Source: Candidatus Multivoraceae bacterium
Lineage (GTDB): Bacteria; Acidobacteriota; Thermoanaerobaculia; Multivoradales; Multivoraceae
Direction of reading: 5' to 3'
Assembly (NCBI GenBank): GCA_965219625.1
Contig: OZ244782.1
Coordinates: 1,764,964-1,828,963 of the forward strand
DNA: 64,000 nucleotides
This document shows, piece by piece, positions 52,397-64,000 of this stretch. Position 1 is the stretch's first letter. Every line of letters starts with the position of its first letter. Under the pieces are notes generated by a model, which saw only the letters and a program-made list of their open reading frames with translations, was not told where the DNA came from and searched no databases. The position numbers and the translations under genes are program-made.

Positions 52397-54814
52397 ATGT
52401 CCGCAGCGCTTCAACCCGGTCAGCTGGGGAGGGAGGTCGCCGAGATCCCGGTCCCCATCAGCTACGACATCATCCGCCTCTTCTCCGAAGGCCTCTACAA
52501 GAGTCCCCACAAGGCTGTCGAGGAACTCGTAACCAACGGGTACGACGCCGATGCCCGGGAGGTTCGTGTGCTGCTACCCGATCAAGATCCCGCCGAGGCG
52601 CCCGCTCCGACAACGCGGCTGTGGGTGATCGACGATGGCCGCGGGATGAACCAGGAGGGCTTCCAGAAACTCTGGCGTATAGCCCGTTCCGATAAGGCGG
52701 ACGCTCCTGGAAGCGAGGCTAGGCCGCCAATTGGTCAGTTCGGGATCGGCAAGCTCGCCGCCTATGTTATTGCCCGGAACCTACTTCACCTCAGCCGTGT
52801 CGACAACCAGCTACTCCTGACCGAAATGGACTTCCGCAGGGTCGAGAAGGTCGAGCTAGACGACGAACCCGTGACGGTCTCACTCCGGAGAATTAGCGAG
52901 ACCGAGGCGAAGCGTCTGCTCGCTGACATTCGCGCTCGCGAGCCCGATGCGTGGGGCCTCATGTTCGGTGACCACCGTGCGTCGCACTGGACCGCGGCAG
53001 GCTTGTCGGACTTCAGGGAACTGTACCAACGACTGGTATCCGGAGTGCTTCGGTGGGTCCTGAGGACGGGCTTGCCTCTTCACTCTAACTTCCGTGTGTA
53101 CTTGGATAGGGAGCGACTCACGTCCAGCAAAGCCGAAGGGACACCGATCCTCGAGGTGCCGATCTGCGAGCAACTTCCTACGCTCGGACCGGTTAAGGGT
53201 CAGGCTCAGATCTTCGGCGAGAAGCTCACCGGCGGAAAGTCGGAGCAGTACGGTAGAAGCAACGGCTTCTTCATTCGAGTCCGCGGGCGCGTCGTCAATT
53301 TGGAGGACGAACTCTTCGGACTGAAAGCGCAGAACCACGCTGCTTGGTCACGCTTCGCTCTTGACGTCGAGGCGAATGGGCTACGCGACCATCTGCTGTC
53401 CTCGCGAGAAGGCTTCAGGGATTCAGAGCACGTCAGGGAGTTCCGGGAGCTCTTGCTCAAGATCTTCAACCAATGCCGAGCTGCCTATGACAAGCGCAAG
53501 GCGGAAGAGAACACGGAACTCGACGTCGCGCAGCTCCTTTCCTACGCTCCCCGGGCGGAGATCGCCGAACCGATTCTTCAAGCCGTGCGTGGTGCCGTCG
53601 AGACGTCTCACGGTTCTTTCTACGTGGCACAGCCAGAGCGAGCGCAAGAGAGTGGCGGACATTGGACCGAGGAGTCCGAGGACCACATCTGCGACAAACC
53701 GATCGCGAGTTTCGAGTTCGTTGAGGACGGACCGAACGCTGCTGCGCTTCGATATGAACCCGATTCGCGCGTTCTTCGCGTGAACTCGCAACACCCGTTC
53801 GTGGATAAGCTCATCGGGACTAGTGGAAGACCTGCCGCTGAGATGTTTGCCGGCTCGGAGGTGGTCCTGGAGGGGCAGCTTTCTTTGCAAGGAATCAACT
53901 TGGCAACTGTTGCCGAACTACTTGCAACTCGCGACCGCGTTCTGCGCCTTATGGCCGGCAAGGCGCCGGCTACAGCGGCGGAGGTCTTGAGGAGGTTACG
54001 CGCCGCCAGCAATAGCGAGGAGGCGTTTGAGGTCGCTGTCGGCGCGGTATTCCTAGCACTTGGATTCCAATACGAGCGGAAGGGAGGGAATCAACCTGGC
54101 CCCGATGGTCTTCTCCACGCGCGACTGGGTCGGCACGCCGAGTCAAGCGCCGACTACTCTCTCGTCTATGACGCAAAGACGACGACTGGGCCTAAGGCCG
54201 TTCCTGCCGCGAAAGTCGACTTCGCCAGCTTGGAGCGCTTCCGAACAGAGGCCGGTGCGACGTTCGGGTTCTTCATAGCCGACCGTTACGCAGGGGAGTG
54301 CGACCCGTGCAGCGCCTTGAGCCGGGAGCTAAGACAATCCGGCTTCTCTGCCTTGTCGCTGCTCAAGATCGAGCATCTTGAGCGGCTGGTGCGACTGCAT
54401 TACCTTCACGGCGTGCCTCTCACAGAGCTCAGGCGTCTGTTCGAGAGTTCGCGATCAGTACTTGACGCGAATTGCTGGGTGGAGAACCTGAAGCACCAGC
54501 GCAGCGAGCGACATGTGCCTTTGAAGGTCTTGCTCGACGGACTCGAGGGCCTCAAGACGGACGCGAGGGCCAAGCCGAGCATTGCGGCGGTCCGAGAGCG
54601 AGTAGCTGAGTTGAAAGAGTTCAGCCCCGAGGAGCTTCGAGCTCGCCTTAGGGCAGTAGAGGCGATTCTGGGCTCTCGCTGGTTGGAAGTAGAGGATGAC
54701 TACACGGTGAGGATGCACAGCGACTCGACCCAGATCCTTCAGCAACTGAATACAGAGATTCAGGGCATTCCAGAGCTGGCCTCGACAGATAAGGCGGCGG
54801 AGGAAAGGTACTGA
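52397..54814 (+). CDS. MORC-type GHKL ATPase fused to C-terminal PD-(D/E)XK nuclease
   Basis: LYKSPHKAVEELVTNGYDADA, IDDGRGM, IGQFGIGK; AFEVAVGAVFLALGF...GPDG...YDAK. Confidence 0.82.
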   Translation: MSAALQPGQLGREVAEIPVPISYDIIRLFSEGLYKSPHKAVEELVTNGYDADAREVRVLLPDQDPAEAPAPTTRLWVIDDGRGMNQEGFQKLWRIARSDKADAPGSEARPPIGQFGIGKLAAYVIARNLLHLSRVDNQLLLTEMDFRRVEKVELDDEPVTVSLRRISETEAKRLLADIRAREPDAWGLMFGDHRASHWTAAGLSDFRELYQRLVSGVLRWVLRTGLPLHSNFRVYLDRERLTSSKAEGTPILEVPICEQLPTLGPVKGQAQIFGEKLTGGKSEQYGRSNGFFIRVRGRVVNLEDELFGLKAQNHAAWSRFALDVEANGLRDHLLSSREGFRDSEHVREFRELLLKIFNQCRAAYDKRKAEENTELDVAQLLSYAPRAEIAEPILQAVRGAVETSHGSFYVAQPERAQESGGHWTEESEDHICDKPIASFEFVEDGPNAAALRYEPDSRVLRVNSQHPFVDKLIGTSGRPAAEMFAGSEVVLEGQLSLQGINLATVAELLATRDRVLRLMAGKAPATAAEVLRRLRAASNSEEAFEVAVGAVFLALGFQYERKGGNQPGPDGLLHARLGRHAESSADYSLVYDAKTTTGPKAVPAAKVDFASLERFRTEAGATFGFFIADRYAGECDPCSALSRELRQSGFSALSLLKIEHLERLVRLHYLHGVPLTELRRLFESSRSVLDANCWVENLKHQRSERHVPLKVLLDGLEGLKTDARAKPSIAAVRERVAELKEFSPEELRARLRAVEAILGSRWLEVEDDYTVRMHSDSTQILQQLNTEIQGIPELASTDKAAEERY

Positions 54815-54820
54815 CACACC

Positions 54821-55990
54821 ATGTTGTCGGCTATTCACCCATTCCCGGCGCGGATGGCGCCGGACCTTGCCCAGGACGCGCTCAAGGCCGCGAGCGCGGG
54901 AAGCGTGGTTCTCGATCCGATGTGCGGGTCGGGTACGGTTCTTCGAGCCGCGTCAGAGGCCGGTTTCGATTGCTTGGGTTTCGACCTGGATCCTCTCTCC
55001 GTTCTGATGGCCCGAGTCTGGACAACATCGGTCGATGTCTCGAAGGTTCTGGACGGCGCGGAGGACCTCGTGTGTTCCGCCCAGAATCTCGCAGAGGCGA
55101 ATGTCACGCGACCGGCGGACGCGGAAACCCGGGAGTTCATCACCTACTGGTTCGCCGAACAGCAGAAGGAGGATCTCGCTAGGCTGGCCACCGTTCTTCG
55201 GCCGCGCCGAGGCGCGGTCGCAGATGCTCTCCGGCTTGCCTTCAGCAGGATCATCGTGTCGAAGGAGATGATGGCCTCGCTTGCAAGGGATACCTCTCAC
55301 AGCAGGCCTCATAAAGTAGCGGAATCGAATGACTTCGATGTTTATGCGGGGTTCCTCCGGTCCGCCCGGTTCCTTATTCGGCGCCTCAGAGTCGACCGAC
55401 TCGCCGGCCAAGCGCGGGTTCTGCAGGGCGACGCGCGTCTTCTGGCGGGCGTGGCAGCCAACAGTGTGGACTTGGCTGTCACTTCTCCCCCGTACCTCAA
55501 CGCGATCGACTATCTACGAGGGCATCGCTTGGCGTTGGTATGGCTTGGGTATTCGCTGGGCGGGTTGCGGGAAACGAGAGCAACCAGCGTTGGCGCAGAG
55601 AGAGCATTGAAGAAAGACGAACCGCCCGTACTCGATGTGTCTGAGTTTGTGGCGAAGAAAGACGGCTCGTCCTTTGCGCGGCGGCACTGGGGCTGGATTC
55701 GCAGGTATGCGAGAGACATGGAGCAAGTTCTCCGGCGGCTCAGCGAAGTCGTGGCATCGGGCGGGCGGATCGTGGTCGTCATCGGAAACTCGTTCGTTCG
55801 TGGCGCTGAAGTCGACAACGCTGCGTTGCTACAGTCTCTGGCGCTTGGGGCCGAACTTGCCCTCGTGGATCGACGGAGCCGCACCATTCCCGCGAGACAC
55901 CGCTACCTTCCACCCCCAAGGGCCGGGAAGGGCGGAGCGCTCGACAGGAGAATGCGCACAGAGACCGTGCTCAGCTTCGGTGTGCCGTAG
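54821..55990 (+). CDS. Amino-DNA methyltransferase (probably N4-cytosine)
   Basis: IHPFPARM, LDPMCGSGT (motif I), VTSPPY (motif IV), VIGNS. Confidence 0.88.
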   Translation: MLSAIHPFPARMAPDLAQDALKAASAGSVVLDPMCGSGTVLRAASEAGFDCLGFDLDPLSVLMARVWTTSVDVSKVLDGAEDLVCSAQNLAEANVTRPADAETREFITYWFAEQQKEDLARLATVLRPRRGAVADALRLAFSRIIVSKEMMASLARDTSHSRPHKVAESNDFDVYAGFLRSARFLIRRLRVDRLAGQARVLQGDARLLAGVAANSVDLAVTSPPYLNAIDYLRGHRLALVWLGYSLGGLRETRATSVGAERALKKDEPPVLDVSEFVAKKDGSSFARRHWGWIRRYARDMEQVLRRLSEVVASGGRIVVVIGNSFVRGAEVDNAALLQSLALGAELALVDRRSRTIPARHRYLPPPRAGKGGALDRRMRTETVLSFGVP

Positions 55991-56901: not shown

Positions 56902-59037
56902 CTAGTAGTCGCCCGGAGCTCTAAGCCCCGTCTGCGACAGCAGGAAGGTGGCCTCCGCCGCCACGAACTCGACCCTCTCCGACATCGGCAGGCCGCGGCT
57001 CGCCGCGTGGCCGGCGTACGGGTGGTAACGCATGATGACCGGCAGCCCGGATGACGTCGCCGCCTGGAGACGGGCAGCGACCTTGCGGGCCTGGAGCGGC
57101 GGTACGCGGGTGTCGCGGTCGCCCTGGGTGAGCATGACGGCGGGATAGGCGACGCCGTCGCGGATTGCCTGGTAGGGCGAGAAGGCGCGCAGCGACTCGA
57201 ACTGCTCTGGAATCTCGCCGTCGCCGTACTCGAGCAGGGCGGGCATGTTGTTCGTCTCGGTGAAGGTGTAGAAGCGGATCAGGTCGAGCTCGGGGAAGCC
57301 GCACAGAACGGCGCGGTAGAGATCGGGGCGCTGGGTCAGGGAGGCGCCGACCAGCAGCCCGCCGTTGCTCGCGCCGTGGATCGCCAGACGTTCCGGATCG
57401 CTGTAGCCCTCGGCGATCAGCCACTCGCCGGCCGAGATGAAGTCGTCGAAGACGTTCTGCTTGTTCTGGAGCATCCCGGCTTGGTGCCACTCCTCGCCGT
57501 ACTCGCTGCCGCCACGAAGCGTCGCGACGGCGTAGACGCCGCCGGCCTCGAGCCACAACGCAGCCAGCGGGTTGAACCGGGGCGTCAGGGAGACGTTGAA
57601 GCCACCGTAGCCGTTCAGCAGGGCCGGAGCCGTGCCGTCAGGCTCGAAGCCTCGCCGGTGGGCGATGTACATCGGTGCGGCGGCGCCGTCCTTCGAGGTG
57701 TAGCGCACCTGCTTGAGGACGTAGTCGGCGCCGTCGAAGGGCGCTCGAGCCTCACGAAAGACCTCCCGCGTGCCCGCCTCGAGGTCGAGCAACCACGTCA
57801 CCGGCGGCTGCAGGTAGGAGACAAGCGACAGCAGCGCCTTGCCCTCGCCGGCACCCCGGATGCTCGCACTGTGATGCTCGGGTACCTCGACTTCGCCGGC
57901 CGGCGTACCGTCGACTTCGAAGACTCGGATTCGGCTCGCTACATGGTGCAGGTAGGTCAGGTAGAGCTTGCCGTCGACGAACGACACGCCCTGGAGCACA
58001 TCTTCGGCTTCCGGCACGACCTCGCGCCAGTTCTCGGGCTGCGGTCGGTCGAGATCGACCTCCATCAAGCGGTTGAGCGGCGCATCCAGGTTCGTGCGAA
58101 CGAAGAGCCGGCCATCGCTGTAGCGGGCATTGAAGCGGGCATCCATGCCCTGGACGATCGGCGTCACCCGCCAGGAGCCAATCTCCACGAGGTACACGTC
58201 ACTTCTGGCCCATCCGTGCTGGACGCCGACGAGCAGCTTCGTGTCGTCGAGTTGCTCGGCCCGAACGAAGGCCCGCGGCCCGATCCCCTCTCCGAACACG
58301 AGGTTGTCCTCGGCGTGGTCGGCCCCGAACCGGTGGAATCGGACGCGCGATCCCTCGATGCGGTCGCGGACCGTGGAGTAGATGCCGCTGCCGTCCTTCG
58401 CGAAGAAGGCCTGGTCGTTCAGCGCCCGGGGCATTTCGAAGTCGAGGTCGACGTTCTGTTCGAGATCCCGCAAACGGACCGTCGTTTCGTCCTCGCCGCC
58501 GATGCGGATGCTGTAGAGCAACTGCTTTCCGTCCGGCGATACGGAGACGATCCCGAGGTGGGCGTACTCGCTGCCCATTTCCGCTGGGTCGATGACGACC
58601 TCGTACTCGCCGGCCGGGTCGATCTTCGTCGGCCCGGGCTCGTCGTCTTCCGGGGCCTCCCGCCGCACGATGGACGCGACTTCCTCGCCCGGCCGGCGAA
58701 GCGTGAAGAGCTCGTACTCGCCGGCCTTGTTCGGCGAGCCGACCGACGGCGTGTCCATCAGCTCGCGGAGTCGCCGTCTCGCCCACTCGCGCTCGGGAGG
58801 CTCGCCGACGATCAGCTCTGCATACTCGTTCTGCCGGTCGATGAACGCGCGGGTCTCCGGGCTGTCCTGGTCTTCCAGCCATCGGTAGGGATCCTCGAAC
58901 TCGACGCCGTGGAGCGTCTCGGTGAAGGAGATCCGCTCCGTATCGGGCGGCGGCGGATAGTCCACGCCGCAGGCGGCCAAGCCGAAGAGCAGCAGGGCGG
59001 CCAAACCGAGGGGGTGCGGCTTTGGCTGAGCAGGCAA
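56902..59037 (-). CDS. Prolyl oligopeptidase family (S9A) lipoprotein
   Basis: Lipobox [31 protein letters not shown]; start uncertain. Confidence 0.92.
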
Positions 59038-59113
59038 GCGGCAAGTGTATCTCGTCGGACGCCTGCCGCCCGTCGCGTTGACCAGACTCCGCCCGTCTGG
59101 AACACTCACCGCC

Positions 59114-59491
59114 GTGGACGTTCCACTCAAGCGCTACGTCGCGGTAGCCGTCTTGCTGGGATGCCAGACGCCGAGTGGCTTCGCGGTTGTTGCCGGGTTG
59201 GAGTTGGCAGCTCATGTCTTCGCGTTCGAGCACGAGCACGACACCGCAGACTTGGCGAGATCTGCAACGCACGGGCACCACCACGACGACGAAGTGGTGC
59301 CCGACCACGACCACGACGCCAGGTTGGACGCGCCGGCCATGTGGCTGTGGTCCGAAACGTCGTCGTCGGCAGTGCTGGCCACTCCGCTTCCGTCGTCGGT
59401 GAAGTTCGCCGGGTCATCGCTTTTCGGAGCGGCCTCGCGACGCGGACCGCCACCGCACCTGTTCCGGCCCTATTCCGCTCTGCTGCTCTGA
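59114..59491 (+). CDS. His-rich leader protein with C-terminal RGPP motif
   Basis: Hydrophobic N-terminus, HEHD...HGHHHDD...DHDHD, SRRGPPPHLFRPYSALLL; directly upstream of RND operon. Confidence 0.7.
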   Translation: MDVPLKRYVAVAVLLGCQTPSGFAVVAGLELAAHVFAFEHEHDTADLARSATHGHHHDDEVVPDHDHDARLDAPAMWLWSETSSSAVLATPLPSSVKFAGSSLFGAASRRGPPPHLFRPYSALLL

Positions 59492-59548
59492 TCCGCGGCC
59501 CTGGCCCGGGTGCGATTTCGTGCCCGGAACCTGGAACGCGGAAAGGAG
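59492..59548 (+). promoter_or_regulatory. Stem-loop abutting the Shine-Dalgarno of the TolC-family gene
   Basis: CCGGGTGCG (59506-59514) pairs with CGTGCCCGG (59519-59527) with two G-U pairs; TCCGCG (59492-59497) pairs with CGCGGA (59537-59542); SD AAGGAG follows. Confidence 0.5.
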
Positions 59549-59553
59549 TCAGC

Positions 59554-60753
59554 ATGCATCGTTTCAGCTTGATCGGCCTCCTTGGAGGTTTCTTCGTCGT
59601 CGCCGGAACGGCACAGGACCGGCCTGTCGTCACCGAGGCCGAATTCCTCGCGGTTCTTGAACGGGCCCACCCCGCGGTTCGCGAGAGCGCGGAGGGCGTG
59701 GCGCTCGCCGAGGCCCGTCTGCTCGAGTCCCGGACCCTTGACAACCCAGTCGTCGAGGCCGTGCGTGAGGATCCCGCCGGCCCGAGCGGCCAGACCGACC
59801 TCCGTATCTCCTGGCAGTTTCCCGACACCGCGCGCCGCGCGGAGATCGACGCACGGGAGGGCGAGCTCTGGGCCGCCCGTCGCCGGCTGGCGTATGACCG
59901 GCTCGCTTATCGCTTGGCGATGAGGGAGGCCTATGCCGACTGGGCGGTGGCGAGTGAGAGGCGACAACGATTGTCGACCCGGACGCAGCGGGTCGAACTG
60001 CTGGCCGAACGAGAGGCCCTCCGGGCGCAGAGGGGGGAGGCTTCGGGGCTTATGGCCCGACGGCTCCAAATGGCGGCCACCACTCTACGCTCCCGTGTTG
60101 CCCTCGCCGCCACGGAAACGGAACGAGCCCGGGCCCAAGCAGCTTTCTGGCGCCCGGACTTGGCATCTGAGGCGCAGCCGGTCCTGCCCGAGCTGCCGGA
60201 TTCGTCTTCAGTGGACGGAGCTGGTGCGGGGGTACGCGCCGCCGAAGCGAATCTGGCAGCTGCCGAACTGGCCGAGCGGGCAAGCCGCGCGAGCTTCGCC
60301 TCGCCCGAGATCACTGTGGGCTGGCAGGAGCAGAAGATCGGGTTGGACTCGGTCGAAGGGCCAAGCTTCGGAGTCGCCTGGTCCGTACCGCTCTTCGACC
60401 GGCGTCAGGCGGTTCGGAAGAACGCGGGCGCGGCCCTGGCGGCGGCCGGGGCGCGGCTTGAACTCGCGGAGCGCGAGTCCGCAGCCTCGCGGACCGCTGC
60501 GAGTAGGAACTTCGCGCGACTCGCGGAGGCTCTCACCGAGGCCCGTGAGGAGCTCGGCGCGGCCGGGAAGATACTGGACGGCGCGGAGGCCGCGTTCCGC
60601 CAGGGCGAAAGCGACTTGACGGACCTGCTTGAGACACATCGTGCGGTGACCGAGGCGGAGTTGGCGGCCCTCGATCTGCACGCGGCCGCGCTGGCGGCGC
60701 ACCGAGACCTCGAACGGCTGGCGCCGAACCGGGAAGAAGGGCCGGGGTCATGA
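59554..60753 (+). CDS. TolC/CzcC-family outer membrane efflux protein
   Basis: Signal peptide, WSVPLFDR, AFRQGESDLTDLLE; AAGGAG RBS. Confidence 0.85.
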   Translation: MHRFSLIGLLGGFFVVAGTAQDRPVVTEAEFLAVLERAHPAVRESAEGVALAEARLLESRTLDNPVVEAVREDPAGPSGQTDLRISWQFPDTARRAEIDAREGELWAARRRLAYDRLAYRLAMREAYADWAVASERRQRLSTRTQRVELLAEREALRAQRGEASGLMARRLQMAATTLRSRVALAATETERARAQAAFWRPDLASEAQPVLPELPDSSSVDGAGAGVRAAEANLAAAELAERASRASFASPEITVGWQEQKIGLDSVEGPSFGVAWSVPLFDRRQAVRKNAGAALAAAGARLELAERESAASRTAASRNFARLAEALTEAREELGAAGKILDGAEAAFRQGESDLTDLLETHRAVTEAELAALDLHAAALAAHRDLERLAPNREEGPGS

Positions 60754-62360
60754 GGGAACGTCTCAATGCGAACCGGTCGCCAAGGAGCCAGCGCGCCCAC
60801 TTCGCGCCGGCCTCAATGTCCGTGGCGACGCTGTTCGTGGCAGCCTGCGTCGGCTCGCCGGCAGCCCAGGAGGGCGATCACACTCATGAGAGTTGGTCTG
60901 CCACGGTTGTCGGCGAGCGGTTCGAGATCTTCCCCGAGGTCGATCCGTTGGCCGAAGGGCGGACAAGCATCGCCCACACGCACGTCACCCGCCTGACGGA
61001 CTTCTCACCCGTAAGCGATGCACGAGTGGAAGCCGTTCTCGTCGACGATGCCGGCGGGCACGTGTTCCGCGCCGCCGGCGCCGTCCGTCCAGGAGTCTTC
61101 GACATCGAGCTCACCCCGAGGCGGCCAGGCGAGGCAGCTTTGCTCTTCCGGATCGAAGACGCAGGCGGGGTCGAGGAGATTCCGGCCGGTCGAGTCCTGA
61201 TCGGGGCCTCGGACCACGCGGAGGGCGGCCCGCTGCAAGCTCCGCCGCCGCTTCCGGCTGGGTCCGACGGCGGCGAACCGGTCCGTTTCCTCAAGGAACA
61301 GCAATGGCAGGGAGGCTTCGCTACCGCTTGGGTGACGGAGGGCCGTCTGGCCCGGAGTGTCGCCGGGGTCGCCACCCTCCGGCCGCCGGCAGGTGGGCAG
61401 AGCACGATCACCGCCCAGGTCGACGGGGTCGTAAAGCCTCCGGCGGGCGCAGCTTCCTGGCCGTTCGTCGGCCGCCGAGTCGAGCGCAACGATCCTCTCT
61501 TCCGCGTCGTGCCGCTCGTCGCGTCCGAGCGGAGTCTGGCGAATCTCGAAGGAGAGCTCGAGGCACTGGCGACCGAGTTGGAGAGCGCGCGGGTGCGGAG
61601 CGCGCGACTCAGGGAGCTTCTGCTCCTCGAAGCGGTCAGCGAGCGGGAGGTCGAGGAGGCAGGGGTCCGCGCCCGGACGCTCGAGTCGTGGCATCGGGCG
61701 GCTCAACGCGACCTCGAGTCCGCCCGCGCTTCGCGGGAAGGCGGAGAGGACGGCGCCGGCATCTCGCCTCGGGCGCCGTTCTCGGGCCGGATCGCCGCCG
61801 TTACTACAACTCCAGGGGCAACGGTCGACGCCGGGGACGCCCTCGCCCGACTCGTCCGGACCGATGTGGTGTGGATCGAGATCGCGCTGCCCCCGCGGGA
61901 GGCGCGGCGGCTCATCGACGCGGGTTTGCGCGGTCTGGTCCTCGACGACCCGGAAAGCGGGCCAGTGCGGGTCGAAGGCGACCTGTCGCTCGTCTCGGTC
62001 TCGCCGGAGCTCTCACCGCGCACCGGTACTGTCACCGTCCTGGTCGAGGCACCGGGCATCGCCGGCGCTGGATTCCCCCTTGGCTCGACCGTCGCGGCGC
62101 AGCTACTCATGGCCGACGAGGAGAGCGGCATCGTCGTTCCTTCCTCGGCCCTGGTCGACGACGGCGGCGTTTCGGTCGTGTTTCTGCAGCTGTCCGGGGA
62201 GGAGTTCCAGCGGCAGACCGTCACTGTACTCGGCCGGCAGGGAGATCGGGTGCTGGTGACCGGCCTGACCCCTGGCCAGCGCCTGGTGACCCGCGGCGGC
62301 GACGCGATTCGCCGTTCCTCCCTGATGGCGGGCGGCGAAGCCCATGGCCACGTCCACTGA
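60750..62360 (+). CDS. RND efflux periplasmic adaptor (CzcB/CusB-like)
   Basis: RAPFSGRI, VPSSALVDDGG, GLTPGQRLVTRG, His-rich ends DHTHE and HGHVH. Confidence 0.9.
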   Translation: MRERLNANRSPRSQRAHFAPASMSVATLFVAACVGSPAAQEGDHTHESWSATVVGERFEIFPEVDPLAEGRTSIAHTHVTRLTDFSPVSDARVEAVLVDDAGGHVFRAAGAVRPGVFDIELTPRRPGEAALLFRIEDAGGVEEIPAGRVLIGASDHAEGGPLQAPPPLPAGSDGGEPVRFLKEQQWQGGFATAWVTEGRLARSVAGVATLRPPAGGQSTITAQVDGVVKPPAGAASWPFVGRRVERNDPLFRVVPLVASERSLANLEGELEALATELESARVRSARLRELLLLEAVSEREVEEAGVRARTLESWHRAAQRDLESARASREGGEDGAGISPRAPFSGRIAAVTTTPGATVDAGDALARLVRTDVVWIEIALPPREARRLIDAGLRGLVLDDPESGPVRVEGDLSLVSVSPELSPRTGTVTVLVEAPGIAGAGFPLGSTVAAQLLMADEESGIVVPSSALVDDGGVSVVFLQLSGEEFQRQTVTVLGRQGDRVLVTGLTPGQRLVTRGGDAIRRSSLMAGGEAHGHVH

Positions 62361-62370
62361 GGCCGGCGGG

Positions 62371-64000
62371 GTGCCTCTGCTGGAGCGACTGCTTCGATTC
62401 TCCCTGCGCCACCGCCTGCTGGTGGTCGCCGGGGCAGCGTTCCTTACGTTGACCGGCGCGGCGTGGATTCTGAACCTGCCTGTCGACATCTTCCCCGATC
62501 TTTCCGCCCCCACCGTGACCGTGATCACGGACGCCCCGGGGATGGCCGCGGAGGAGGTCGAGCTCCTCGTGACCTACCCGGTGGAGTCGGCCATCAACGG
62601 ATCGCCAGGCATTCGGCGGCTGCGTTCCATCTCCGCCGACGGGATCTCGTTGGCCTGGGTCGAGTTCGAGTGGGGCGCCGACATCTACCGCGCCCGCCAG
62701 GTCGTCAGCGAGCGGCTGCAGCGGGTCGAGCTGCCGGCCGCGGCCGAGTCGCCGGAGCTCGGACCGATCTCGTCGATCATGGGCGAGATCACGTTCATCG
62801 CGATGACCTCCGCGCCCGTGGAAGAAGGCGGCGTCAGCGCGATGGAACTCCGCCGGGTCGCCGAGACGGCCGTTCGCCGCACGCTCCTGTCGATCCCCGG
62901 GGTCTCGCGGGCGGTTCCCATCGGTGGCGAGCGGCAACAGCTGCAGGTCACGGTGCGGCCAACCGCCCTGGCCCAGCACGGCCTCTCCCTTGCCGCCGTC
63001 GTAGACGCCGTGGCCGAGTCGAGCCGCGTACTTTCCGCCGGTTTTCACGTGATGGCGGGGGAGGAGCACATCGTGCGCGTGCGCAGCCGGGCCCGCACGC
63101 CGGAGGAAGTGGCCGCGTCCAGCGTGCGGGTCGATCGCGGGATTCCACTCAGGGTCGGCGACGTGGCGAACGTCGAATGGGGGCCGGCGCCGCTTCGTGG
63201 CTCCGGCTCCTACCGCAACCGTCCGGCGGTCATCCTGTCCGTGCAGAAGCAGCCGGGCGTGAATACCCTGGACCTGACTCGCGCCATCGATGAGGCTCTG
63301 GCCCGATTGCAGCCGGCGCTGCCGCAAGGCGTAATCCTCGAGAGCGAGAACTTCCGCCAAGCGGACTTCATCGAAATCGCGATCGGCAACGTCGCCGAAG
63401 CGCTCCGCGACGGAGCGATTCTGGTCATCCTCATCCTGGCGCTCTTTTTGGGCAGCGCCCGGACGACGTTCATTGCTGCGTTCGCCATCCCGCTTTCCCT
63501 GGTCGCCGGGATCCTGGCGATCGCGGCTCTCGGGCTTCAGATCGACACGATGACGCTTGGCGGCCTGTCGATCGCCATCGGGCTGCTCGTGGACGATGGG
63601 ATCATCGCGATCGAGAACATTTTCCGGCGGCTGCGGGACGAGCGACGACAGCCGAAAGGTGAGCGCAGGCCGGCCGAGGAGGTCGTCGCGGCCGCGACCC
63701 GGGAGGTGCTGAGCCCGATTCTCCTTGCCACGTTGATCGTCGTCTTTGTCTTCGCGCCGATCTTCTTCCTGCCGGGTCTGGAGGGTCGGTTGCTGCGACC
63801 GCTTGGCCTCGCCTTCGTCGCAGCGCTCGCCGCGTCACTGTTCGTGGCACTCACCTTGACGCCGGTACTTGCCGTGCTGTTGCTGCGCCGGGCGAAGGCG
63901 CTCAGGTCGCGAAGGCCATGGCTGCTGCGAGCCTGCCGGAGGGTCTACACGCCGACCCTCGATTGGTGCCTTTCGCATCGCCGGTTCGTGCTGTCTTCAT
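62371..64000 (+). CDS. CusA/CzcA-family RND permease (partial, runs off right edge)
   Basis: Manual translation: MPLLERLLRFSLRHRLLV...LPVDIFPDLSAPTVTV...TMTLGGLSIAIGLLVDDGIIAIENI...LPGLEGRLLRPL. Confidence 0.92.
   Translation, partial: MPLLERLLRFSLRHRLLVVAGAAFLTLTGAAWILNLPVDIFPDLSAPTVTVITDAPGMAAEEVELLVTYPVESAINGSPGIRRLRSISADGISLAWVEFEWGADIYRARQVVSERLQRVELPAAAESPELGPISSIMGEITFIAMTSAPVEEGGVSAMELRRVAETAVRRTLLSIPGVSRAVPIGGERQQLQVTVRPTALAQHGLSLAAVVDAVAESSRVLSAGFHVMAGEEHIVRVRSRARTPEEVAASSVRVDRGIPLRVGDVANVEWGPAPLRGSGSYRNRPAVILSVQKQPGVNTLDLTRAIDEALARLQPALPQGVILESENFRQADFIEIAIGNVAEALRDGAILVILILALFLGSARTTFIAAFAIPLSLVAGILAIAALGLQIDTMTLGGLSIAIGLLVDDGIIAIENIFRRLRDERRQPKGERRPAEEVVAAATREVLSPILLATLIVVFVFAPIFFLPGLEGRLLRPLGLAFVAALAASLFVALTLTPVLAVLLLRRAKALRSRRPWLLRACRRVYTPTLDWCLSHRRFVLSS

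Follow-up and report, generated by a model that had tools for sequence, protein, structure and literature searches.

Toward the end of the window, by which is meant the whole 64,000-nucleotide stretch of DNA that was analysed, a small open reading frame (ORF) lies in front of three genes for a heavy-metal efflux system. The genes and the element that precedes them are as follows.

59078-59106, plus strand: promoter-like element, TTGACC (59078-59083), a 17-nt spacer and AACACT (59101-59106)
59114-59491, plus strand: leader ORF, 125 aa, with a GTG start at 59114 and TGA at 59489-59491
59554-60753, plus strand: outer-membrane efflux protein (TolC/CzcC-like), 399 aa (PF02321, E 2.5e-17)
60750-62360, plus strand: periplasmic adaptor with His-bearing termini, 536 aa (HlyD_3, E 6.7e-15)
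62344-64000, plus strand: heavy-metal RND pump, 1043 aa (ACR_tran, E 7.5e-132)

The pump gene continues beyond the end of the window, to about 65475 in window coordinates, and its full-length product scores 732.6 bits against the CusA/CzcA model TIGR00914 (cut-off 701.45). The original prediction had placed a TolC/adaptor/CzcA-type operon 62 nt behind the small ORF, and this proved accurate: 62 nt of intergenic DNA separate the leader stop from the next ATG (59554), on the same strand. The adaptor is above the cut-off of TIGR01730 (97.7 bits) and below that of the CzcB/NccB model TIGR00999 (81.4 bits). The best solved relatives of the pump are CusA (447.9 bits) and ZneA (439.3 bits), nearly equal scores that do not discriminate between candidate metals.

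Heavy-metal RND pumps are usually described under the control of two-component or MerR/ArsR-type regulators. No regulator or two-component system occurs within about 7 kb on either side of this operon, in agreement with an earlier reading of the sequence. Upstream of the leader are a divergent S9 peptidase, two ORFs without a family and a DNA methylase with a HATPase_c_3 protein; downstream of the operon are threonine synthase and DUF885. At this locus the sole conserved control element is the 125-aa leader with its mRNA helix. Of 81 genomes sampled from the class, 16 have an orthologue of the outer-membrane protein, each with a leader upstream.

Is the leader translated at all? Spurious ORFs are common in high-G+C genomes and the GTG has no Shine-Dalgarno (SD) sequence in front of it, which would suit an untranslated RNA leader whose ORF is a by-product of base composition. 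Against this stand purifying selection that follows the codon pattern, with dN/dS between 0.05 and 0.35 in four of five segments (0.33 for the whole leader, dS up to 0.56; 26 sequences, 4 of the original 30 having dropped out at a start-motif pattern that they did not match), amino-acid conservation that reaches down to 30% identity (41 sequences, 30-74% identity) and a GC3 of 0.80 vs a GC2 of 0.55. The absent SD could itself be accounted for by a leaderless start, the promoter-like element lying only 7 nt before the GTG. The untranslated reading is already disfavoured and hardly credible. Because purifying selection follows the codon pattern, these comparisons show the leader ORF to be a real, translated and conserved gene.

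When 12 upstream regions are aligned, TTGAC and most of TCTGGCACAGTGAC do not vary and the flanking DNA has diverged. The second hexamer is AACACT in the window and CACAGT in most relatives. Since the element stops 7 nt ahead of the GTG, the mRNA may be leaderless or nearly so. A consensus scan of the region returned no sigma-70 promoter and no intrinsic terminator. A sigma-54 reading of an upstream TGGCAC-N5 was dropped because its -12 GC is not conserved.

The leader belongs to an unannotated family. Its nearest homologue cluster has an NCBI member, also of 125 aa, called 'hypothetical protein'. A close search found 37 homologous proteins, a distant search 38 cluster representatives and a profile search 83 matches. 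There are about 110 homologous clusters at 50-90% identity, none with Pfam annotation, and the family could be given a model of its own. The window protein matches no Pfam family at E<=1 and no NCBIfam family, and precomputed Pfam domains are absent from all 83 profile matches. A tblastn search of 72,556 plasmids gave no match, and a metagenome search with the family alignment only four short loci. The ESM Atlas returned unnamed clusters save one, automatically named DUF2946 (Pfam PF20558; rank 29, score 0.95), which is a lead only.

Conserved parts of the leader protein

The original prediction described an ORF of about 125 aa with a hydrophobic, export-like N-terminus and a His/Asp cluster, followed by RGPP, 12 more residues and the stop. 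All of these are present, His and Asp clusters running from H34 to D68 and the motif and its distance to the stop being exactly as described. The parts of the protein can be listed thus.

59114-59185, plus strand: predicted Sec signal peptide, residues 1-24 (by eye, and AlphaFold2 helix)
59213-59317, plus strand: His/acidic putative metal-binding region, with H34, HEHD (40-43), HGHHHDDE (53-60) and DHDHD (64-68)
59318-59434, plus strand: spacer, residues 69-107, of variable sequence and fixed length, predicted disordered
59441-59452, plus strand: RGPP, R110-P113, candidate arrest core (codons 110-113, cgc gga ccg cca)
59459-59488, plus strand: C-terminal tail, L116-L125, LFRPYSALLL, which always ends at the stop

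The N-terminus looks like a Sec signal peptide, with an n-region LKR, an h-region YVAVAVLLGC and a c-region QTPSGFA that has small residues at -3 and -1. AlphaFold2 predicts a helix over residues 3-39 (pLDDT 86-93). P20 is at least 90% conserved among 41 sequences, and small residues occupy -3 and -1 in 60 of 72 scorable homologues. LLGC was not taken as the mark of a lipoprotein, because C17 is W in distant relatives.

The three His clusters are invariant among close homologues. In the wider set of 41 sequences (30-74% identity), H55, H57 and H67 never vary, and conservation is at least 90% for H53, G54 and H65. Codon comparison shows strong purifying selection on the clusters, with a dN/dS of 0.05 and a dS of 0.56 for residues 53-68 (26 sequences). 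The leader has no Cys pair; H65-x-H67 and HGHHH stand at the equivalent position.

The spacer is constrained in another way. Its dN/dS is 0.59 (26 sequences), but the stretch between the last His of the second cluster and the LF of the tail measures 46-49 aa in 66 of the 67 proteins that could be scored, 45 of them having exactly 48. In the window, 42 residues lie between H67 and R110. A nearly free sequence whose length is kept within ±1-2 residues is, by comparison of sequences, the mark of a ruler and not of a binding domain. The AlphaFold2 model has no secondary structure over residues 53-116 (pLDDT 54-65), so that about 64 residues are predicted to be disordered.

What of the RGPP itself? 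It is depleted from the likely genes of the source genome (7 observed vs 23.2 expected, ratio 0.30), with ratios of 0.92 and 0.77 for the control motifs RGPA and RGAP in the same genome. This parallels the general depletion of RGPP-type motifs from the rest of the proteome described in the main text of Fujiwara et al. (EMBO J 2025, PMC12992588). The whole 3.7-Mb genome was scanned for small ORFs of coding character that have a hydrophobic run and, within their final 20 residues, R[AG]PP; a single ORF, the leader, was retrieved. Because the motif is depleted genome-wide and this is the only such small ORF, the occurrence of RGPP in the leader exceeds chance.

The earlier reading had proposed conservation of the His cluster, RGPP and spacing as the comparative check. 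Within the clade all three hold. RGPP is found in 36 of 36 close homologues, its CGC and CCG codons are invariant in 26 of 26, and 53 of 59 scorable proteins have 12 residues (PHLFRPYSALLL in the window) after the motif. Among distant relatives the check holds only in part. R[GA]PP is kept in 22 of 38 representatives (17 RGPP, 5 RAPP) and absent from 16, of which 11 have another xxPP and 5 have no PP. Reading divergent loci by eye revealed the same trend, the canonical motif being absent from 8 of 9; the variants seen are RSRSP, SSPPG, ERPP, RADPP (two), RRAPT, GRGPV and LGPP, and the PP-to-stop distance ranges from 10 to 16.

The tail is better conserved than RGPP. Its family consensus is LF(T/R)xHC(S/A)LLL, within a C-terminal module RRGPPxPLFxxHCxLLL-stop that has a dN/dS of 0.22 and a lowered dS (26 sequences). 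In all 67 proteins that could be scored, LF is placed exactly 10 residues from the C-terminus; of 74 proteins, 67 end in LLL and 72 in LLL or LLI. The tail residues survive synonymous codon changes in distant loci. The window sequence has a third Pro after RGPP (59453-59455), and its tail has Y-S where 35 of 36 close homologues have H-C. Since the tail and the helix described below persist in sequences without canonical R[GA]PP, the family may not depend on the motif as its essential element. The protein-level conservation of the 10-residue tail is left unaccounted for by a model of RGPP arrest alone.

A helix over the Shine-Dalgarno region

The end of the leader and the intergenic region are predicted to fold into the following structure.

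59477-59557, plus strand: SD-masking hairpin (RNA folding, conservation, covariation)
59481-59489 with 59545-59554, plus strand: helix 1, the L123-L125 codons and the U of UGA against GGAG, spacer and the A of AUG
59492-59497 with 59537-59542, plus strand: helix 2
59506-59514 with 59519-59527, plus strand: apical helix
59540-59548, plus strand: SD region GGAAAGGAG of the outer-membrane factor gene

The predicted minimum free energy is -51.1 kcal/mol (z -4.63), and none of 200 shuffled sequences is as stable. The same architecture appears in 11 of 11 loci, each folded alone, and the SD region is invariant or nearly so in 29 aligned sequences. Across 25 sequences, 93.5% of cells pair, vs 24-41% when the partners are slid. 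Nine pairs have changes on both sides, which none of 500 shuffles matches. Folding and covariation together show that the last three leader codons, the stop and the intergenic region make up a conserved predicted helix on the SD and AUG of the pump operon. An Rfam search with the hairpin gave no match at E<=1.

Other ways of reading the hairpin were set aside. It was not retained as a terminator or attenuator because it has no U-tract, and the scan found no terminator-like site. An erm-type three-stem attenuator, in which a stall at RGPP frees an anti-anti-SD, was also dropped; upstream of the main helix RNAalifold showed no pairing that is conserved, and the helix stays intact when the RGPP region is masked.

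Where would a ribosome have to be to open this helix? The folds that address the question are equilibrium models of the RNA 3' of the ribosome only, with an assumed footprint of +14 nt counted from the P site. If the ribosome stalled at RGPP, its P-site codon would be at 59447, and helix 1 would begin 34 nt further on, at 59481. Placing the ribosome at P112 leaves the pairing of the SD core at its free-RNA level in all 11 loci (unpaired probability 0.00-0.25). With the ribosome at the stop codon, SD accessibility rises in all 11 (0.24-0.97). Of the two positions modelled, only the stop codon exposes the SD. According to these models RGPP is too distant from the helix for direct melting of the SecM or CutF type, and the wiring therefore probably differs from both. 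The earlier proposal that the leader gates translation of the pump gains a physical basis in the SD-masking helix, which that proposal did not include.

How the leader might act

The reading we favour is that the ORF encodes a cis-acting, metal-sensing leader peptide that governs translation initiation of the efflux operon. Both stalling and the metal response are predicted, and we put the whole forward tentatively, at a little below an even chance. In outline, the leader chain would be exported co-translationally and the ribosome would arrest once RGP occupies the P site and Pro113 the A site. It would then be about 34 nt upstream of the helix and, because the stalled ribosome lies short of that helix, the SD would still be masked and the pump off. 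At this arrest H67 and H53 would be 45 and 59 residues, respectively, from the peptidyl-transferase centre. Zn, Ni, Co or Cu would bind the His clusters, already outside the ribosome or translocon, and binding would fold or pull the chain and release the arrest, as proposed for CruR. The released ribosome would read the last 12 codons and unzip the helix at the stop codon, and a 30S subunit could load on the pump mRNA. The direction of the switch, with release meaning on, is the least certain step.

Perhaps the tail has a part of its own to play. This leads to a two-checkpoint nascent-chain switch, inverted with respect to SecM and CutF, which we regard as a doubtful elaboration. An export-coupled arrest at RGPP, deliberately beyond reach of the helix, would keep the pump off, and metal binding by the His clusters beyond the translocon would lift it. 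LFxxHCxLLL-stop would be a second module in the tunnel, slowing termination on the anti-SD arm and so setting the on-time. The leader would then be a His-based Zn/Ni/Co/Cu(II) sensor in place of a two-component system for an HME-RND pump, and a protein family of its own, either convergent with DUF2946 or very distantly related to it.

What if the productive pause is not at RGPP at all? The leader might still sense metal but stall at or beside the stop codon, with the stall meaning on, as in SecM and CutF. The 17-residue module RRGPPxPLFxxHCxLLL would be inside the exit tunnel, a slowly terminating ribosome on the anti-SD arm would open the SD, and metal on the exported His clusters, 58-72 residues from the peptidyl-transferase centre, would strengthen the pause. 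Such a scheme makes sense of a tail that is more conserved than RGPP, is maintained through synonymous changes and is anchored to the stop even where the PP-to-stop distance varies. It also agrees with the modelled exposure of the SD only when the ribosome is at the stop in all 11 loci, and with CutF, where stalling beside the stop switches the downstream gene on. However, we know of no arrest or termination-stall motif that resembles LFxxHCxLLL, and the window tail itself departs from the H-C of its close homologues. The main text of PMC12992588 describes RGPP as a strong, context-tolerant arrest core, indeed the most robust and EF-P-refractory one, stalling with its third codon in the P site and its fourth in the A site. 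Because RGPP is such a strong core, the ribosome would be expected to stop there first. A pause at the stop codon is on balance unlikely.

A different kind of explanation is that the leader is a periplasmic, His-rich, metal-binding accessory protein of the pump (a buffer, chaperone or inhibitor; cf. CzcI and CusF). The helix would be ordinary translational coupling only and RGPP would have no role in sensing. Protein-level conservation does extend to the His clusters and tail, 16 of 38 distant representatives do without R[GA]PP, and CzcI, encoded upstream of czcCBA and reported to have no proline motif at its C-terminus, has been suggested to be a metal-sensing regulator (PMC9973294). Co-inheritance of the leader with the pump genes in 16 of 16 genomes fits any operon component. 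An accessory protein is harder to reconcile with the lack of a predicted folded domain (about 64 residues disordered), with a spacer that is nearly free in sequence (dN/dS 0.59) yet fixed in length within ±1-2 residues, and with a motif that is avoided elsewhere in the genome and invariant in the clade. A helix of -51 kcal/mol over the SD also exceeds the needs of ordinary coupling. As a complete account this seems improbable, although the accessory role and the leader-switch role are compatible and not mutually exclusive.

If the metal-sensing leader model holds, the principle of CutF and CruR, in which the nascent exported peptide is the metal sensor, would extend to histidine chemistry, and with it probably to sensing of Zn, Ni, Co or Cu(II). 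It would also extend to HME-RND efflux and, in taxonomic range, to Acidobacteriota and relatives. The same logic, metal relieving arrest, would give induction instead of repression through the position of the arrest site relative to the SD-masking helix. Sharp predictions follow from the fixed length of the spacer and from the tail.

Comparison with known systems

The class to which the leader would belong is already in print as a bioinformatic prediction (PMC9973294, PMC12992588). As far as the main texts go, CutF-like proteins occur upstream of OEP/RND genes, which are their commonest downstream neighbours (PMC9973294), and RGPP/RAPP uORFs precede metal genes (PMC12992588). The claim of novelty made for the leader is narrowed to that extent. 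The narrower claim, that no His-based leader in front of an RND operon has been characterised, stands for the published main texts on CutF-like and RGPP/RAPP leaders. His-only CutF-like clusters (SSN 14 and 17) neighbour HupE/UreJ, not RND pumps (PMC9973294), and the main text of PMC12992588 places no RND pump next to an arrest peptide (the word 'efflux' occurs 0 times).

CutF of Rhodobacter capsulatus combines an SD-masking stem-loop with a metal motif and a Pro motif (Ozturk et al., mBio 2023, PMC9973294; bioRxiv 10.1101/2025.02.05.636593). The window leader agrees with the operational definition of CutF-like proteins in the main text of PMC9973294, being of 125 aa with P112-P113 13-14 residues from the end, a 62-nt same-strand gap and a predicted signal peptide. 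Like CutF, it is followed by a short intergenic region in which a stem-loop covers the SD of the gene behind it (PMC9973294). The differences are in the sensor and the stall site. CutF senses Cu via CxxxC, whereas the candidate ligands in the window leader are His only. The PPP of CutF is 2 residues from the stop (P109EPEGPPPRL118), and for this reason its stalled ribosome reaches the stem-loop. RGPP in the window leader is 12 residues from the stop with a conserved tail, and the stalled ribosome would be about 34 nt short of the helix. The leader thus has the SD-masking stem-loop of a CutF-type switch, but a stall site outside melting reach.

CruR (Bp2923) of Bordetella pertussis is the DUF2946 prototype (Roy et al., mBio 2022, PMC9426467), and its arrest in vitro is shown in PMC12992588. 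CruR and the window leader (whose export is predicted) are both exported, small first genes of metal operons, each with an R-(A/G)-P-P core and, upstream of it at a conserved distance, a metal motif (putative in the window leader). The gap is 45 residues between CXXC and RAPP in CruR, conserved within 1-2 residues (PMC9426467, main text), vs 42 from H67 in the window leader. The proposed logic, in which metal binding relieves arrest, is also shared. In contrast, CruR has CXXC and a RAPP 3 residues from the C-terminus, so that its Pro motif, like that of CutF, is 2-3 residues from the stop; the window leader has no Cys pair and its RGPP is 12 residues away. The intergenic region is 162 nt in CruR and 62 nt, fully structured, in the window. 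The CruR output is Rho-dependent termination that represses an uptake receptor, and the window leader probably acts through an SD-masking helix to induce an efflux pump. Are the two proteins related? The window leader does not match the DUF2946 (PF11162) HMM and neither does anything in the source genome. Among 41 relatives there are 6 sub-threshold matches (best E 0.085). An hhalign comparison of 41 leader sequences with 9 acidobacterial DUF2946 proteins, a small and very divergent set, gave a probability of 1.85% (E 0.027) over the signal peptide only. By these measures the leader is outside Pfam DUF2946 and homology to it is not demonstrable.

The RAPP/RGPP arrest peptides (ApdA, ApdP, ApcA and the RAGP of SecM) resemble the leader in being small secretory proteins, encoded upstream of another gene, with such a motif near the C-terminus. 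Most of them monitor Sec/YidC, and those from Streptomyces that relate to metals contain Cys, with or without His (PMC12992588, main text). CzcI of Cupriavidus metallidurans is similar in position, its small gene lying immediately upstream of an RND operon of the czcCBA type. Taken together, sequence comparisons make it most likely that the leader is a variant of the published CutF/CruR-like class. What is new is the combination of His-only ligands, an RND operon and an SD helix, with stalling and metal response predicted.

The leader gene and its neighbours

The original prediction placed a His-rich, RGPP-bearing leader peptide in front of the pump operon. Its factual statements, namely the ORF, the His/Asp cluster, the RGPP position, the 12-residue tail and the 62-nt gap before the next gene, were all correct on re-reading. 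The features are as follows.

59078-59113: promoter-like element (TTGACC, 17-nt spacer, weak -10 AACACT), conserved in 12/12 aligned relatives
59114-59491, + strand: leader ORF, GTG start, 125 codons, TGA at 59489-59491
59441-59452, + strand: R-G-P-P, leader codons 110-113, with a third Pro next
Leader residues 34, 40-43, 53-60 and 64-68: His/Asp clusters (H34, HEHD, HGHHHDDE and DHDHD)
ATG at 59554: outer-membrane factor (PF02321), next gene after the leader
60750-62360: periplasmic adaptor (HlyD_3; TIGR01730)

The RND pump, encoded after the adaptor and scored at its full length, exceeds the NCBIfam threshold set for heavy-metal pumps of the CusA/CzcA type (732.6 versus 701.45 bits). Its closest solved relatives are CusA and ZneA, with nearly equal scores. 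The adaptor is long (536 aa, with an N-terminal extension of about 200 residues) and has His at both ends, GDHTHESW near the N-terminus and GGEAHGHVH at the C-terminus, which would fit a pump that itself handles metal.

Upstream of the leader lie a divergent S9 prolyl oligopeptidase, two family-less ORFs, and a HATPase_c_3 protein paired with a DNA methylase; downstream of the operon are threonine synthase and DUF885. No regulator was found among the annotated neighbours on either side, in agreement with the claim that no metal regulator or two-component system is adjacent. The 805-aa HATPase_c_3 protein is followed 7 nt on by the 389-aa methylase (N6_N4_Mtase; 52397-55990), and together they resemble a restriction-modification or defence module rather than a sensor kinase. 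The S9 peptidase (56902-59130, - strand) has a lipoprotein-like signal, LLFGLAAC. Its listed TTG start (59130) would overlap the leader start and the promoter-like element, so its true start is probably further in.

The -10 of the promoter-like element is AACACT in the window and CACAGT elsewhere. The element stops 7 nt short of the leader GTG, with no SD ahead of the start, and the leader mRNA may be leaderless at translation. An alternative upstream TTG (59078) is conserved at the nucleotide level, but the promoter-like element accounts for this and translation from there is not needed.

Selection on the leader protein

A word-indexed search returned 37 proteins including the window's own, 35 of them 62-74% identical along their entire length. 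Searching 1.84 billion cluster representatives exhaustively added 38 that are more distant (33-57% identity), and a profile search for the family found 83 proteins. None of these homologues has a Pfam annotation or any name except 'hypothetical protein'. Is the ORF translated at all? A codon alignment of the window and 25 related loci (4/30 sequences were left out, their start motif being unmatched) gives a dN/dS of 0.33 for the whole ORF, 0.05 for His cluster residues 53-68 (dS 0.56), 0.59 for spacer residues 69-107 and 0.22 for the C-terminal module. This pattern indicates that the ORF is translated, that the His cluster matters as protein and that the spacer is nearly free in sequence. Codon-level selection thus disfavours the reading of the leader as an untranslated RNA. 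In the C-terminal module dS is lowered to 0.25, which points to an extra nucleotide-level constraint on the last codons.

The proposed metal-binding cluster is well conserved. Across 41 sequences, the most distant at 30% identity, H55, H57, H67 and L124 never vary, and P20, H53, G54, H65, P112, P113, L116, F117 and L123 are at least 90% conserved. The proposed arrest motif is less uniform. RGPP (RGPPP in the window's own leader) is present in 36/36 close homologues, but only 17 of the 38 distant representatives have RGPP and five RAPP; 11 have another xxPP and five lack PP. In nine further divergent loci the same position, judged by eye, reads SSPPG (L041), RSRSP (L042), ERPP (L043), RRAPT (L055), RGGPP (L056), RADPP (L057 and L058), GRGPV (L074) and LGPP (L075). 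RGPP is avoided elsewhere in the source genome. A crude set of likely genes (1,679 frames, 819,716 residues) holds 7 copies where composition predicts 23.2; the ratio is thus 0.30, compared with 0.44 for RAPP, 0.92 for RGPA and 0.77 for RGAP. This agrees with the depletion reported across bacteria (PMC12992588). A whole-genome scan for short ORFs that look coding, contain a hydrophobic stretch and carry R[AG]PP within the last 20 residues matched only the leader.

Between RGPP and the stop lie 12 residues (PHLFRPYSALLL), and the tail is no less conserved than RGPP. Its LF stands exactly 10 residues before the C-terminus in 67/67 scorable proteins, LLL ends 67 of 74, and in distant loci the tail residues are retained despite synonymous codon changes. 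The window's Y120-S121 (59471-59476) is H-C in 35/36 other close homologues and N-C in the remaining one (P0028), so the H-C pair is dispensable in at least the window's lineage. Perhaps the tail slows termination, or perhaps it serves a tail-specific periplasmic protease as a non-polar C-terminal degron; both are speculation. CutF is reported to undergo rapid degradation once exported (PMC9973294).

The distance between the two conserved parts is nearly fixed. The second cluster's last His and LF are 46-49 residues apart in 66/67 proteins and exactly 48 in 45, with 42 residues between H67 and R110. The CXXC-RAPP spacing in DUF2946 is 45, varying by one or two residues (PMC9426467). AlphaFold2, run on the 41-sequence alignment (mean pLDDT 70), predicts helices at 3-39, 41-52 and 117-124 and leaves 53-116 unstructured; as modelled, this region is a ruler-like spacer, not a domain. 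By eye, the N-terminus reads as a putative Sec signal peptide, in which LKR would be the n-region, YVAVAVLLGC the h-region and QTPSGFA the c-region; the predicted 3-39 helix supports this.

The family profile matched 15/401 genomes sampled from the phylum, including 9/9 other genomes of the window's genus. Among 81 genomes sampled from the class, 16 have such an outer-membrane factor and all 16 have a leader directly upstream (13 by profile, three read by eye). A copy in a complete genome from another family of the phylum (L040, G258:C1:376310-379639, ORF 1423-1950) is fused in frame to the outer-membrane factor signal peptide (...FDGSSR|LISLLAWLIAAAGG...). RGPP, tail, stop, intergenic helix and first pump-gene codons are deleted and the pump gene is then out of frame, so that from its sequence this looks like a decaying copy. 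More divergent leaders precede outer-membrane factor genes of 36-37% identity in L074 (1012-1419) and L075 (982-1383). Both have His clusters and TAG stops, and they end GRGPV...PLPLLLCTLLT and RDLGPPAYLMLCVLLT, respectively. The superfamily is wider than the reach of the profile search.

A predicted SD-masking helix and models of its control

One element that the original prediction did not include emerged in the follow-up. The leader's last codons, its stop and the entire intergenic region are predicted to form one long hairpin (-51.1 kcal/mol, z -4.63; 0/200 shuffles fold as stably), without a U-tract or an Rfam match.

59481-59489 with 59545-59554: helix 1, codons L123-L125 and the U of UGA paired with GGAG, spacer and the A of AUG
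59492-59497 with 59537-59542: helix 2
Between the arms of helix 2: G+C-rich apical helix capping the hairpin

The same pump gene begins 60-63 nt past the leader stop in 28/29 loci from named MAGs (labelled Acidobacteriota, Thermoanaerobaculia or 'Candidatus Multivorans'); the contig of the 29th stops too soon to show it. All 11 loci folded singly share the architecture, including distant ones with different arm sequences. In a 25-sequence alignment 93.5% of cells are paired, and shifting the 3' partners by 1-3 columns lowers this to 24-41%; nine pairs show two-sided changes (3.4 +/- 1.1 in shuffles; 0/500 reach nine). Helix 1 is nearly invariant within this alignment and draws its support mainly from the divergent loci folded separately.

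Where would a ribosome stand? In published toeprints, the P site of the arrested ribosome holds codon three of RAPP/RGPP (PMC12992588). The corresponding position here, 59447, lies 34 nt before helix 1 begins. A ribosome was modelled with an assumed footprint of -12 to +14 nt, counted from the first base of the P-site codon, and only RNA 3' of it was folded. At PP the SD core stays as paired as in free RNA in 11/11 loci (unpaired probability 0.00-0.25), whereas at the stop codon SD accessibility rises in 11/11 (0.24-0.97).

The idea that the leader senses metal and gates pump translation is partly supported, by the conserved His clusters and the SD-masking helix, and is sharpened; that some distant relatives lack R[GA]PP counts against it. 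We tentatively favour, at slightly less than even chances, a cis-acting nascent-chain metal sensor in which release switches the pump on. It builds on translation of the ORF, selection on the His clusters, a spacer whose length is fixed, a C-terminal module that is conserved and the SD-masking helix. The leader would be exported co-translationally, and with the ribosome arrested at RGP|P the helix would stay shut and the pump unexpressed. Once metal bound the His clusters that had already emerged, the arrest would lift, which follows the proposal made for CruR; moving on to the stop, the ribosome would open the helix and permit initiation on the pump mRNA. Such wiring would give induction by metal, which matches the need of an efflux pump. 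The direction of the switch is the weakest step.

What if the pause is at the stop instead? With the whole 17-residue module in the tunnel, the same sensor would work as stall = on, as in CutF. This would account for the tail and its anchoring to the stop, but we consider it improbable. It is similarly unlikely that the leader is an accessory periplasmic metal-binding protein whose translational coupling is ordinary. The partial loss of R[GA]PP would suit such a protein; the disorder, the ruler-like spacer and a motif otherwise avoided in the genome would not.

Relation to known leader peptides

CruR, the DUF2946 prototype, combines CXXC with RAPP; copper relieves the arrest and Rho then terminates transcription (PMC9426467). 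CutF has CxxxC, PPP and a stem-loop masking the SD (PMC9973294). Among arrest cores RGPP and RAPP are the most robust and do not yield to EF-P; they are over-represented close to the C-terminal ends of small secretory proteins encoded upstream of diverse genes, metal genes included (PMC12992588). The leader (P0001) does not qualify as a Pfam DUF2946 member, having no HMM match to that family and no CXXC. Sub-threshold DUF2946 matches occur in 6/41 relatives (best E 0.085), and hhalign against a profile of nine acidobacterial DUF2946 proteins, a small profile and hence a weak test, gave a probability of 1.85%. One acidobacterial protein above the Pfam cut-off (L045:1474-1836, - strand) has CPVC and, after RGPP, a short tail with PLF (C-terminal end RGPPAGHSNPLFV); judging from its sequence, it may be intermediate between canonical DUF2946 and the leader family.

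The leader does pass the operational filters for CutF-like proteins. A bioinformatic survey listed 5,334 of these, with the OEP of RND systems as the commonest downstream neighbour, and its His-only clusters (SSN 14 and 17) neighbour HupE/UreJ (PMC9973294). Apart from this survey, full-text searches found no paper with a His-only leader before an RND pump, although the supplements of the survey and of the EMBO J paper may list cases. The Pro motif adjoins the stop in CutF (PPP, 2 residues; 10.1101/2025.02.05.636593) and CruR (RAPP, 3 residues; PMC9426467), whereas RGPP here is 12 residues away, so the family is built differently. The class itself (CruR, CutF-like proteins and RGPP/RAPP arrest peptides) is already published. 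What is new is a family without a Pfam model that combines His-only ligands, an RND context, a candidate arrest motif some way ahead of the stop, a tail that is conserved and an SD-masking helix shared by all loci folded.
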